Shown here one piece after another: positions 33,001-42,000 of a DNA stretch of 64,000 bases (positions within the stretch are counted from its first letter, which is position 1; every line of letters starts with the position of its first letter). Source of the DNA: Escherichia coli (GTDB lineage: Bacteria > Pseudomonadota > Gammaproteobacteria > Enterobacterales > Enterobacteriaceae); assembly GCF_030013595.1 (NCBI RefSeq), contig NZ_CP122769.1. The stretch is one strand, 5' to 3'. A program made the position numbers.

Positions 33001-36000
33001 ACTCTGAACTTGTAAGTAAGTTAATTACGATTGGACTGCATCCGTTTAAGGTCGATGCAGAAAACTGGCTCTATTGTATAGATAAGGTCGTAAACCCCGG
33101 AAAGAACTCTCGGTGGGCTGAAGGTTTTATAGACGTTAACACTATGAAAAGGCTTAATGAACAAGTTAACGTTCCCGGCCGTAAGTATACAGTCACAGAA
33201 AATCATTTCTCATCAGTCACACAAAGTGACGACGAATCTGAGCATCGTTACTTCAAACAACTTTCCGTTGTAAAGTTTCCTGAATACGTCAATTTCGGTT
33301 GTATGTATGAGTTAGTAGTTAACTGGATGCATGGACGTAAGACAATTTTCAGCCCATTTATGATCACTCAGACTGTTCAGTTTGCCGATCCGCTCAAGTT
33401 GTCAAAAGAAAACGTCCGCTACAAAGCAATCACTAATAAACAGGCAAGTATACCTTCAGTTGTCACATTCTGCCCTCGCCTGCGGGATATGGATAATGAC
33501 TACATGGCCGTAACTCGCGAGCTTGAGGATGGCGCAAAGCTTTTAAGAGGGTATCTTACTTTCACTGTTATGGGTAGTAATGCCAATTCTGTGCAGACAG
33601 CAGCTAACGATCTCAAATCCTTTTACCTCGAAAGCCGGGTCAAAGTAGCAGATGATTCCTTTATCGTTTTCCCGTCATTTATGTCATGTCTGCCAATGTG
33701 CAATGACCCAAAGACAATTTTCGACCTTGACCGATCCGAAGTAGTGAGCAACACCGGAGCGGCTCATATGACGCCGATCTTTGGGCCCTGGAAAGGTAAT
33801 ACAGATAGACCAGTACTGAGTTTAGTTTCTCGTGAAGGTCAACTCATGGGACTTGATATTTTCAAGACTTCTGCAAGCTATAACATGGTTATTGGTGCAA
33901 CGTCAGGTGCAGGCAAGTCATTCTGGACAGCATATCTAATCAATAACTATCTTGGAGCTGGACCGCGATCTAATAACCTCGTTCATTATCGCTCAACATT
34001 TAAGCATTTTTTAGAAAACGAATACCCAGATGATGATCCTGATGGTGCTCAAGTTTTTGTAGTGGACGTGGGGCGTTCTTACCAGGGGATTGCGGAACAA
34101 TATACAAACAGTCAATTTATTGATTTCGGTAAAACCCCTGACTTCACCCTAAATCCCTTTGCCTTCCTAACTGACATCACTGTTAACGACGATGTATTTA
34201 ACGAAGCACCTGAATTTACCGGTGAATCAACTTCAAACGATGCAGAAAAAGACAAAGTTGCTCAGACCATAATGGTTCTGAATCAGCTAAAAATTATGGC
34301 TTCAGAGAAAGGCCTTATCGATGATTATCAACAATCAGTGATGCTTCAGCTTATTGCAGAAGAGTACCAGGAATCCAGAAAATCAGGTCGGACCGGTTCA
34401 ATAACCGGCTTTGCTCTGCGTTGCAAGAAGCATGAAGACAAACGTATAAAGGATATTGGGGAGCAACTCGGAGCATGGTGCGAAGGTGGAATTTATGGGC
34501 ACCGGTTTACCGATACGTTGCCTCCAATCAACTTCGACAGCAGATTTATTGTTTTGGAACTGGAGGAGCTAAAAGGCACCCCCCACCTTCAGACAGTTGT
34601 TTTAATGTCTATCATTCAGGCTGCTCAGCATGCAATGTTCATCAAAAAAGATGGGCGTCGTCGCTTGTTCATCCTAGATGAAGCTTGGGAGTACATTCGT
34701 CCTGATAATTCATCAGGTGCCGGAAATCAATCAAACCAATTCTTCTCTTCCTTCCTCGAAGCGGCATGGCGTAGGTTCAGGAAAACAAACTGCGCTGGCA
34801 TCTGTATCACACAGTCGTTTGAAGATTATTTTACTTCTTCTGTTGGCCGGGCCCTGACTGCTAACTCGCCTTGGAAGATAATCATGAAACAAGAAAAAGA
34901 AAGCATTGAAGCAATGAAGGCTAATAAATATTTTTCTACTTCAGATGCAGAATATGAACGAATGAAAAATATTCGTACAGTCAAAAAGGTGTTTTCAGAG
35001 ATGTTAGTCAGGTTCGAAAACTTCCAAGAGATCTGTCGGTTATACGTAGACCGGAAAATGGAGCTTTGTTTTACTACGGATAGTGCTGACAGGAGTAAAT
35101 TATGGGAAATTCAAAGCCGCGAGAATTGTAGCTATGGCGAGGCAATAGAAATTCTCTATGCTCAAGAAGTAGCAGCGGGTTTGGCCGCGTAGAGTAAATA
35201 TCTTCAAGCAAAAACAATTAAACCAGATGTCTCATAAGAATCTGGTTTTTTATTGTATGCCTTAAGTAAACAAATGAGGTTATGACTTAATGAGTTCATC
35301 ACTGTGCTGCAAATTTTGGTTTTATAATTAATATGGCTTAAAAACAGTGACATAATTACAAATCGCATTTAGGTTGTGTACGCATTAAGTAAACAAAATT
35401 TATAACATCAATACTGACTTTATAAGATGAAATTCACGTAAATTACATTTTTGTTTACCAAAGGTAATCAAAGGAGCGCGGCATTATTAGTGAAAACAGA
35501 TCACTGGTGTCATATTGCATACAAAACTTAATATCCTTTAATCATTCTTCTAAAAGTTTAATATTAACGCTTTGGTTTATGAAAATTTATCCAATTTGCT
35601 CACCGAAGACTTTTAACTTATTTAACCCCCTTTATCGCCAATCTGTGATTTTCTAATGTTAGCCTACAGTTCTAGGGCCCTTGCTCCCATGATGCGAATC
35701 CTTCCACCTAATAAAGATTAACGCCTCATTCCTGTATGCCGGTCTTACGACGCCAGTGCACGGACAATTTTTGGTCATCACAAGGCCAGGCGGGAGATTT
35801 AATCAGGGCGTGGTGTTCCTTTGCAGCAGCTGCGGCACTGTAAGCCGAAGGCGGAATTAACTCCTTTATCGCCATCTGGGGACGTCATTAGGGGTACCCC
35901 TTTTAACTTGCTCAGGACCATTAAGCTAAAATTCCGGATAGTGATTGACGTAAGATTTAGGCTAAGCAGGTAAAGTGATCCCCGCTCCCGGGGTGACCAC

Positions 36001-39000: not shown

Positions 39001-42000
39001 TGAGCAGCAGCTAGGACACTGTCAGCCGCTGGCAGATTTAACCCCCTTAATCGCCACACTGGGGTTGCCTCCTGAAGTTGGGTTTCAGTTCTGGGCTAGG
39101 TTGCTAACTCTGCTCCCATAATTCGTAGTGGGCCTACTCAAGAGATTAACACCTCATATCTTTAGACTGGACTGACGACAACGATTCACAGTTAGGAAAC
39201 GTAAATCAGCACACCGGTGAGATAGATTTTAGGGTCTAAGCAAGAAATAGGGTAGGCGTGAAGATTCATTAATGGAGCTCATAACGTCAAAGCGTAGAGA
39301 AGTCGACAAGAATCGTGGTTTAAAAAGAATGAGCATTAGGTATGGACTAGAGAGTCTGAGCTCTCATCTGCAAGTTAAGCTCACAAAAAATCATAAAAAA
39401 GTAAACAAACATTAGCTTAGGATTGAAACAAAGGATAGAATTGTACGTATAACAATGAAATGGACGCATTATGCGTAAAGTTTACATATATGCGTAAAAG
39501 TCGGTTTTCAGTGCAAAAAGGTCATAACCATGAATTTACTTGAAAAGATCGCCCTCGTTGGTCAGCGCATGAAAAGCGAGCAGATTTCTCTTAAGGAATC
39601 TCTGATGGCTTCATCAAGAGTATCTGTTTCTGATGATAGTGTTGATGGTGTTGATAGACTGATCTACAACCACTGTTTAAATAAAAAAAATCTCTCTGAT
39701 TTTTTTGGGAAGTCACGAGTAACGTTCAATAAAATACTTTCGGACTTAGAAGAAAAAGAAGTTGTTGGTGCACCTATTTATCAAAACAAAAATCATCTTT
39801 ACACCCGCTGGGATGTTCAAAAAATAATGGATGCCCTGGGTTATCCCAAGTACCGCGATCATTACTTTAGCAGAGCTATTGTTACTCAGAATCATAAAGG
39901 CGGTACAGGGAAAAGCACTACATCTGTAGCTTTAGCAGTAGCAGCTGCTTTAGATCTACAACTGAATGCACGTGTATTAATGATCGAATGGGACCCACAA
40001 GGTTCGATTGGAAGCAGCATGATTCAAAGTGTCTCAGAAGATGATGTCTTCCTTACAGCAATTGATGCAATCCTTGGAATTTATGAAGAAAATTCTGAGT
40101 ATAAAAAATATTTAGATTCAGGATTCTCTGAAGAAGAAATCATCACTAATATGCCTTTTTCAACGCATCTGCCAAACTTGGACGTGATAACGGCATTTCC
40201 GACAGATGCTCGTTTTAAAGATAAATACTGGCAATGTTCTAGAGAAGAACGAACGTCTTTGTTACTACGTTTCAAGGAAGTTATCTTACCGGTACTGAAG
40301 CAGAACTATGATTTGATTATTATAGACACTCCACCTGAAGATTCACCTTTGATCTGGGCTGCTGACGAAGCGGCCGATGGGATTCTTGTCGCAGTGTCAC
40401 CACGTGAATATGATTACGCCTCTACTACAGACTTCATGCTTACAATAAGTGAAAGGTTTAAACAATCACCAAGTAAGGGCGATAATTTAAAATGGTTCAA
40501 AGTTCTTGCTGTCAATGTTGATGACAAAAGTCCATATGAAAGAATAGTTTTGGATAAATTAATCAGAACTGTTCAGGACCTTTTGATGTCCGCTAACATA
40601 AAAAATTCTGAAGCATTTAAGGCAGCTGCTTCCAAAGGGCGTACAGTGCTTGATATCAAAAAATCAGAGGAACTTTGTTCCGCAAAGCAACTTGATGTCG
40701 CAGAAGAATCTGTATTACAGGTATATCAACAATTTATAAATGAAATAAAAAGTTTTTCAGCTAAGCAAGGAGTTAACGCATGAGCGATGAGCAACATATC
40801 GGGAATGATAAATCTCGATATTTAAACGCACCAAAGCGGACAGAAGTCGGTCACCGTTCAGGTCTTGCGGGTTTGAAAACAGCACCTCGCATAAAAAAGT
40901 TATTCACTCTTCATAAGGGCCGAAGACTTGAAGCGGAACATGTGATTGTTCCAGCCCAGAGAGTGGAGAAGGAGACCTTAGTCCATCCAGCAAACCCACG
41001 AAATCAAGAAGCCCTTACAGATTATTCTGTTAGAGATATTCTTAAGCAGATTGAAGAAAGAGGGGTCGATACCGAAGGGATCGCTGTAAAAAGAGATGGG
41101 GTTTATTTATTAATAGAAGGAAGTCGCAGACGTTTCTGCTGTATAAAGGCAGAAAAGGATCTCCCCCTGTGGGTACTACCGGATGAACTAACCGAAGATG
41201 ATATAAATTCAATTATATCCGCAGCACAAACATCTCGAAAATTTTCATATAGAGAAGTTGGGTTTCAATTTATCAAGAAAATGGAAGAAAAGGGATTTTC
41301 TACTAATGAAGAACTCGCAGCATATCTTGGGATTAGTCATGTATCGGTAGCCAAAAGAATCCAGGCGGCCCGTATTGACGAAACATTGATCTCTTTATTC
41401 CCGGATTATGAAGGAATACCGAACTCCTATTATAGTCGCTTGTCTCGTTTACAGAAATATGTGCAAAAAAATCTATTTCCTTTAGATGAAGTAATAGATA
41501 ATGTTAAAGAGGAAACAAAAGATTTAGACATTGGAGATCTCCAAGTTGCCCAAAAAGTTGTAATGGAGAAAATCACACAATCTGTGGAAAGTGTTTGTGA
41601 AAAATCTTATTCCACAAAATGGGAAACAAGTGATCTTATTACTTTTGATAACAAAGATAAGTATGCAAGAATCAGTAAAAACAATACTGGAAGAAAAATT
41701 CGCATTGAATTCAATAGGATAAGTGCGGGTTTTATTAAGGAGCTAGAGGAGTTCATAAAAGAAAAATTAAAAGTATCAGAATAAATATTGAACTGCATCT
41801 TTATGATGCAGTTCATATGATTTATATTTTTAATTTCTTGTTATATTAATATGGGGTGTGCGCAGGTTCAGACATATAAGGTCTTAGTTCTATATGAACA
41901 GAAGCGCCATTCCCATCATTTACTACGTTTAAAGGTGCTTTGCCCGGCAATGACATAGTTGCAACGTCAGGTCCAGAAACAGCAAAATTATTTTCTGCTG

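Follow-up and report, generated by a model that had tools for sequence, protein, structure and literature searches.

A 3.5-kb tandem array upstream of parA as the probable centromere of the IncHI2 Par1 partition system

The window analysed here, a stretch of 64,000 nucleotides from Escherichia coli contig NZ_CP122769.1, belongs to an IncHI2 plasmid and corresponds to its Tra2/Par1 region; between the conjugation gene trhC and the partition gene parA lies an array of 15 direct repeats of about 249 bp, each with a single copy of a 21-nt box, ATTTAACCCCCTTAATCGCCA. We consider it probable, from comparison with related plasmids and with known partition systems, that this array serves the Par1 system in cis as its centromere (parS array). 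The best reading of its type is a tandem array in the style of sopC, composed of predicted P1-type ParB sites, in which the unit is exceptionally long and turnover is quick. A preliminary description of the sequence had suggested a centromere or incompatibility determinant of parA, and the comparisons support this: the box is the best-conserved part of the unit, it follows parAB into unrelated contexts, and the adjacent ParB is a homologue of P1 ParB. The anatomy of the array, its conservation, the co-occurrence of box and parAB, the homology of ParB to that of P1 and the turnover of whole units are matters of observation.

Tandem Repeats Finder reports a single array at 36060–39150 (period 249, 12.6 copies, 73% matches), a repeat finder pushes its start back to 35620, and segmentation anchored on the box gives 15 units, where about 14 had been counted before. 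The conserved blocks quoted earlier are present in the units, and the array ends, as described, ~380 bp upstream of the parA start at 39530. Its order by unit type is A B C D E C D B F G H I J K, in which A is unit 1 fused with a divergent unit. The principal parts, all on the + strand, are as follows.

35590–39150, + strand: array of 15 direct units, the proposed Par1 centromere (parS array); 13 units of ~235–251 bp and two divergent units of 225–228 bp.
36331–36828, + strand: recently duplicated unit pair, copy 1; 99–100% identical to 37080–37577.
37080–37577, + strand: recently duplicated unit pair, copy 2; units at 37080–37328 and 37329–37577.

The duplicated pair originated by recent unequal crossing-over. 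It had been described as part of a near-identical repeated triplet, which holds for these two units; the third, at 37578–37825, is of a different subtype, matching 36082–36330 and being only 88% identical to 36829–37079. Two supposed inserts of ~170 bp turn out not to be insertions; they are the two divergent units, u2 (~35854–36081) and u11 (~38062–38288), which are 83–85% alike and in each of which the box is degenerate and the spacer replaced.

Thirteen copies of the box are strong and two are degenerate, and all lie on the + strand. The box is the best-conserved window of the unit at both 11 and 21 nt (0.96–0.98 against a mean of 0.83, over 23 unit types from 10 IncHI2 plasmids). Searched at up to three mismatches, it has 13 matches in the 64-kb window, all within the array (shuffles 0/100). 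A position-weight scan (maximum 31.5 bits), used for degenerate boxes across the same 64 kb, added the two degenerate copies and found nothing comparable outside the array and no second box-like site within any unit. The boxes are placed as follows.

35620–35640, + strand: box 1, ATTTAACCCCCTTTATCGCCA, one mismatch.
35854–35874, + strand: box 2, GAATTAACTCCTTTATCGCCA, degenerate, in unit u2; matrix score 10.5 of a maximum 31.5 bits.
36082–36102, + strand: box 3, exact.
36331–36351, + strand: box 4, exact.
36580–36600, + strand: box 5, exact.
36829–36849, + strand: box 6, B-box variant TCTCCA, one mismatch.
37080–37100, + strand: box 7, exact.
37329–37349, + strand: box 8, exact.
37578–37598, + strand: box 9, B-box variant TCTCCA, one mismatch.
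37826–37846, + strand: box 10, exact.
38062–38082, + strand: box 11, ATTAAAACCCTTTATTCGCCA, degenerate, in unit u11; matrix score 18.9 bits.
38289–38309, + strand: box 12, exact.
38538–38558, + strand: box 13, one mismatch.
38787–38807, + strand: box 14, exact.
39036–39056, + strand: box 15, the last, exact; 494 bp before the parA start in 10/10 IncHI2 loci compared.

At least 27 complete plasmids, deposited independently of one another, have the whole 4337-bp spacer between trhC and parA at 100% identity, and we therefore do not regard the array as an assembly artefact, a concern raised in the preliminary description. In all, 1128 plasmid records match, and the complete IncHI2 plasmids with the identical spacer come from E. 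coli, Salmonella and other hosts. A scan of a genome collection with an 18-nt core of the box recovered arrays solely at ~249-bp spacing, in four enterobacterial species, and otherwise single chance matches. These arrays are consistent, by sequence, with the IncHI2 type, and the scan with this core revealed no further long-unit array.

Comparison of IncHI2 plasmids shows that the array changes by whole units. The distance from trhC to parA at ten IncHI2 loci is 3089, 3836–3838, 4337, 4353, 4365 or 4592 bp, corresponding to a copy number of 10–16 units among these related plasmids, and one IncHI2 plasmid, truncated by insertion sequences, has seven units left. Among the loci compared, unit 1, the final six units and the 494 bp that separate the last box from parA do not vary, and the middle of the array has been rearranged through two- or three-unit duplications. 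The flanking genes and leaders are 99.9–100% identical, while the whole array aligns at 91.7%. Because these whole-unit changes occur between near-identical flanks, we conclude that the array grows and shrinks by unequal recombination, in agreement with the expansion proposed earlier. Separately, we note that insertion sequences (IS1, IS421, IS91, IS3 and ISVsa5) lie in or beside the array of several plasmids, including pHCM1 (L002, 3596–7549), L015 (1310–4886), H74 and H75. They truncate or split those arrays, yet the plasmids persist.

Relatives of the system were gathered by ParA and ParB searches and form a graded series. In every relative of the IncHI2 ParB examined, the box or a co-varying version of it lies upstream of parA, in 1–37 copies, at spacings of 43, 52–56 or 66–67 bp and with spacers that have no similarity between lineages. 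These relatives are listed with the identity of their proteins to those of IncHI2, the number of boxes and the spacing.

IncHI1 R27 (L007): ParB 71%, ParA 89%; ~27 boxes in two blocks; 52–54 bp.
Citrobacter, with non-IncHI neighbours (L003): ParB 71%; 6 boxes; 56 bp.
Salmonella contig (L023): ParB 73%; 8 boxes; 53 bp.
Enterobacter asburiae (L020): ParB 61%; 7 boxes; 55 bp.
Buttiauxella (L019): ParB 66%; 12 boxes; 43 bp.
Plautia symbiont plasmid (L021): ParB 69%; 1 box.
Klebsiella, IncHI1B-type (L004, L005): ParB 48%; up to 37 boxes, plus 2–4 downstream of parB; 66–67 bp.
Providencia (L006) and Xenorhabdus (L022): ParB 53–54%; 1–2 boxes.

In the IncHI-like plasmids of Buttiauxella (L019 4991–5463) and E. 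asburiae (L020 5015–5345), parAB and the array are inverted relative to trhC and a four-gene cluster, with the array still upstream of parA. Since the array follows the inverted parAB in both, it belongs to the par module and not to the transfer genes.

The unit of 249 bp, already described as far longer than typical, is an outlier within its own clade, in which the units are otherwise 43–67 bp long. One candidate origin, a degenerate multimer of ancestral 43–67-bp units, was not supported. No unit contains a second box-like site at 8 bits or more and there is no sub-periodicity, autocorrelation of the unit having no excess at lags 43–67; the best internal self-alignment (score 18) falls inside the range of shuffles (mean 15.6, maximum 22).

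The sites of the more distant relatives vary together with their ParB proteins. In Klebsiella the box, AAACAACCCCGTTGTTCGCAG, has the same geometry with changed arms and hexamer, and in Providencia and Xenorhabdus it is AAACAACCCCCTTGTTCGCCA; the site in these three groups, whose ParBs are 48–54% identical, can be written AAACAAC-CCC(C/G)-TTGT-TCGC(AG/CA). Alignment of the ParB proteins places ISHVSVxKR in the predicted helix-turn-helix with TTAA-type boxes, versus I[GS][IT]ES[IV]RKR with ACAAC-type boxes, and the C-terminal change of GRK..EFNR to GQK..EFKR is found only in the Klebsiella ParBs, whose hexamer is TCGCAG. Such co-variation would be expected of a ParB that reads the box, but as a correlation it falls short of a demonstration. 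Several close homologues of this ParB are named 'peptide transporter' in NCBI records (P0002, P0004 and P0006–P0010) and another 'RepA protein' (P0018), names that are apparently mistaken annotations of a PF08775 ParB.

The two partition genes lie directly downstream of the array.

39530–40783, + strand: parA, an open reading frame (ORF) for a 417-residue Walker ATPase; matches to ParA/RepA/SopA models start at about residue 108–115.
40780–41784, + strand: parB, encoding a 334-residue homologue of P1 ParB with a helix-turn-helix, a C-terminal PF08775 domain and a GSRRR motif near the N-terminus.

ParB is homologous to P1 ParB in both its helix-turn-helix and C-terminal DNA-binding dimer domains (PDB 1ZX4, E=4e-16; PF08775, E=9e-11), has tblastn matches of 28% identity to the parB genes of P1 (E=4e-22) and P7, and shares with P1 ParB the GSRRR motif. 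In P1 the A-boxes are recognised by the helix-turn-helix of ParB and the B-box by its dimer domain. The annotated right arm of P1 parS runs ATTTCAA g GTGAAA TCGCCA cg ATTTCAC, and its B-box, TCGCCA, is identical in the IncHI box. The latter, ATTTAAC cccc TTAA TCGCCA, consists of an A-box-like heptamer and a partial inverted copy of it (TTAAT) abutting the hexamer, a resemblance to P1 that is one of sequence only. The A-box differs from that of P1 at 1–2 of 7 bases (ATTTAAC matches 6/7 of ATTTCAC), and the A-to-B offset is 15 versus 14 nt. The parS of P7 has the layout of P1 with another hexamer, TTCCCA.

The form of the array recalls the F plasmid, whose sopC is built of 12 repeats of 43 bp in tandem, with a single SopB-binding inverted repeat in each. 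Both are tandem direct repeats with one binding motif per repeat, the motif being predicted in IncHI2, and the Buttiauxella relative has 12 repeats of 43 bp, as in sopC itself. They differ in that sopC lies downstream of sopB and has a 43-bp unit, whereas the IncHI2 array lies upstream of parA and its unit is about six times longer. The IncHI2 proteins do not belong to the SopA/SopB families: ParA reaches 31 bits with the SopA equivalog NF010259 (cut-off 725), and ParB 48 bits with NF010252 (cut-off 274), the sole plasmid partition-protein equivalog that it matches.

A mechanism can be proposed, each step of it by homology with P1 and F. Dimers of the adjacent P1-type ParB would bind the 21-bp site ATTTAAC-CCCC-TTAA-TCGCCA once per unit, with the helix-turn-helix domains contacting the ATTTAAC and TTAAT arms and the C-terminal dimer domain contacting TCGCCA. 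The 13–15 sites over 3.5 kb would nucleate one large ParB–DNA partition complex, and the type Ia ParA ATPase encoded next to the array would act on this complex to separate the plasmid copies. In a second role, ParA would repress the operon through a palindromic operator just upstream of parA, and extra copies of the array in trans may titrate ParB and so cause incompatibility.

Several observations weigh against this explanation. The P1 site is single and composite, ~80 bp long, and lies downstream of parB, its two arms placed on either side of an IHF site, and the IncHI2 array, a single-arm site repeated 15 times upstream of parA, is unlike it in both location and tandem form. The IHF consensus, WATCAANNNNTTR, has no match inside 35590–39150. 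The spacer blocks CTTGCTCCCAT, GATACAGATTAAC and ATGCCGGTCTGCCGAC come second to the box in conservation, at ~0.89–0.94, and the box therefore may not be the only functional element. In favour of the array as the site, on the other hand, the spacer downstream of parB is only 61 bp long, contains no box and leaves no room for a site there.

The position of the array, between the transfer operon and the par operon and upstream of parA, raises the question of a mainly regulatory role, in which spreading of ParB would silence or insulate between the trhA–trhC operon and parAB, or the array itself would be the par operator. The upstream centromere of type Ib systems doubles as an operator, and promoter-like sites are few in the array (3 found versus 7.5 expected). 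We nonetheless judge a regulatory role to be decidedly unlikely. The IncHI2 ParA has an extra N-terminal region of ~110 residues, like type Ia ParA proteins, which is typical of type Ia repressors, and a separate conserved palindromic operator adjoins the parA promoter:

39444–39500, + strand: operator-like palindromes in the parA promoter region, ACGCATTATGCGT at 39464–39476 and ATATGCGTAAAA at 39488–39499.

Furthermore, the arrays of Buttiauxella and E. asburiae are not situated between trhC and parA, and the Klebsiella plasmids have extra boxes downstream of parB. The palindromes are conserved in IncHI2, IncHI1 R27 and the Citrobacter plasmid, and their region is, besides the box, the only stretch conserved between the IncHI2 and IncHI1 spacers. 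The ParA operator of P1 occupies the same position. From the sequence, these palindromes are probably the ParA operator or autoregulation site, distinct from the boxes. By eye, the spacer block CATRATRCGAAATG agrees weakly with the operator half-site ATTATGCGTAAAG, at ~7/9 bases, and half of the units show fewer matches. The spacer block that ranks second in conservation, CTTGCTCCCATRATRCGAAATG (36406–36430, with equivalents in each unit), is likewise loosely similar to this half-site, which could be chance.

How much of a centromere 3.5 kb in length is needed is a separate matter. The ~228-bp spacers have no sequence counterpart in any relative, and they are probably tolerated filler, kept alike among units by unequal crossing-over. 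A refinement of the centromere explanation that is possible, if on balance doubtful, holds that few boxes suffice for partition and that most of the array is a neutral satellite propagating itself, which expands and contracts by unequal crossing-over and has no function in either its size or its 249-bp unit. In keeping with this, the plasmids of the Plautia symbiont, Providencia and Xenorhabdus manage with one or two boxes, complete IncHI2 plasmids exist with 10 units, or with seven after truncation, and spacer sequences are unrelated between lineages. Against it, all of the large IncHI-type plasmids examined retain many boxes (7–37), neither the edges of the array nor the 494 bp between last box and parA vary, and some spacer blocks are conserved in units that are only 66–80% identical overall.

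The opposite view, that this is a satellite-like centromere in which the 228-bp spacer is functional, seems to us unlikely. Under it the conserved blocks might bind a second factor or give ParB room for spreading, and gain or loss of units might tune partition strength or IncHI incompatibility; if true, it would be loosely comparable to the competition of eukaryotic centromeres. As a corollary, the identity of their boxes implies that IncHI1 and IncHI2 plasmids should interfere with each other in partition, whereas Klebsiella plasmids of the IncHI1B/pNDM-MAR type, with a different box, should not. There is an analogy, and only that, to alpha-satellite DNA and the CENP-B box, in the combination of a short conserved box, a fast-evolving spacer, higher-order repeats and copy changes by unequal crossing-over. 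Eukaryotic satellite centromeres differ in employing unrelated proteins and mechanism and in extending over megabases, versus kilobases in IncHI2.

Two further accounts set partition aside altogether. That the repeats are iterons or a copy-control locus of an IncHI2 replication protein appears highly improbable. The plasmid does carry large iteron-like arrays (81 bp × 10, at 7742–8570), but the rep ORFs, at 9003–10148 and 23558–24433, lie 11–25 kb away with no box-like sequence near either, the rep-associated repeats have an unrelated motif, AGTCACTACCGTTGTCA, and in other plasmids the box accompanies parAB and not rep. The iteron reading was rejected on the different motif of the rep-associated repeats in the window. 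We note that in the 81-bp array (10.3 copies, 7742–8570) each unit has an inverted repeat around GTCACTACCGTTGTCA, and that 21-bp repeats with the same motif occur at 10388–10466 and 10832–10890. These repeats flank the 381-residue ORF at 9003–10148 on the − strand, and the whole has the appearance of a replication gene accompanied by iterons and a copy-control array.

The least credible account, to which we give almost no weight, is that the units encode small RNAs or small proteins. Each unit does have a short GC-rich hairpin followed by a T-rich stretch, scored as terminator-like, and ORFs of 62–78 residues overlap the repeats, but no Rfam match was found at E≤1, and folding z-scores of −0.02 to −0.92 (six unit segments, both strands) are no better than those of shuffles. 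Unit lengths of 225, 235, 248, 249 and 251 are not consistently multiples of three, the ORFs vary by unit, and promoter-like sites are below expectation. Structured RNA was rejected on the lack of an Rfam match or folding signal, and coding repeats were rejected on the small size of the ORFs (≤78 residues) and a frame that is not preserved between units. The array is thus non-coding, as first described, with no ORF above 78 residues, no Rfam match and no signal of RNA structure.

The closest known system to the proposed IncHI2 centromere is Par1 of R27. It has the same order of trhC, repeats, parA, parB, four genes and parM, its type Ia parA and parB are orthologous and also lie in Tra2 (ParA 89%, ParB 71%; R27/pHCM1), and the identical box, in the same orientation, occurs in tandem direct repeats upstream of parA with the same operator-like palindromes. 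R27 differs in having a unit of 52–54 bp and ~27 boxes in two blocks, versus 249 bp and 13–15 boxes with higher-order repeats in IncHI2, and all that its 3.1-kb trhC–parA spacer has in common with that of IncHI2 is the ~25-nt box and ~110 nt of the parA promoter. Lawley and Taylor reportedly implicated, in 2003, the direct repeats upstream of R27 parA as a centromere-like incompatibility site. According to two later papers, R27 has two partition systems, of which type I (Par1) is the major one and type II (Par2) the minor one (PMC4489591; PMC12317039). A paper on R27 'incC' (PMC4853401) concerns the RepFIA replicon and not the Par1 locus. Neither the IncHI2 249-bp array nor the P1-like anatomy of the box is described in the full-text literature searched, which did not include the primary R27 and R478 papers.

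The principle of tandem partition-site arrays is established, and the IncHI2 array is a large, widespread and experimentally tractable form of it. IncHI2 plasmids have a major part in carrying multidrug, colistin (mcr) and metal resistance. The array is present in more than 1100 sequenced plasmids and is left unannotated in almost all of them. The 21-bp box, as the likely ParB site, offers a target for work on stability and incompatibility, for plasmid curing and for centromere annotation across this ParB clade. The clade itself is a natural series on centromere architecture and partition, presenting one protein–site pair as 1, 2, 6, 12, 27 or 37 sites at spacings of 43–249 bp.

The array differs in composition from its surroundings, with a GC content of 49% versus 42% in trhC and 38% in parAB. 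Arrays are GC-richer (49–59%) than the adjacent par genes (37–44%) in four lineages (35590–39150 here; L007 25602–26744; L005 4756–7175; L003 7451–7811), and it is possible that avoidance of H-NS binding or of spurious promoters explains this.

The genes around the array are those expected from the annotated twin plasmid pM160133_p1 (IncHI2A), which has a TraC-family protein upstream of the spacer and, downstream, a ParA-family protein, a ParB-family protein, four small genes and parM. Upstream of the array are two features.

32511–35192, + strand: trhC, an ORF for a TraC-family conjugation ATPase and the last gene before the array; annotated 'TraC family protein' in a 100%-identical IncHI2 plasmid.
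35193–35589, + strand: AT-rich leader from trhC to the array, 33–35% GC; 96–100% identical in other IncHI2 plasmids.

The leader contains a terminator-like inverted repeat at 35202–35266 and three copies of a ~21-nt motif, TGTAYGCMTTAAGTAAACAAA, at 35254–35274, 35377–35397 and 35452–35472; the first and third of these also pair as an inverted repeat (I2).

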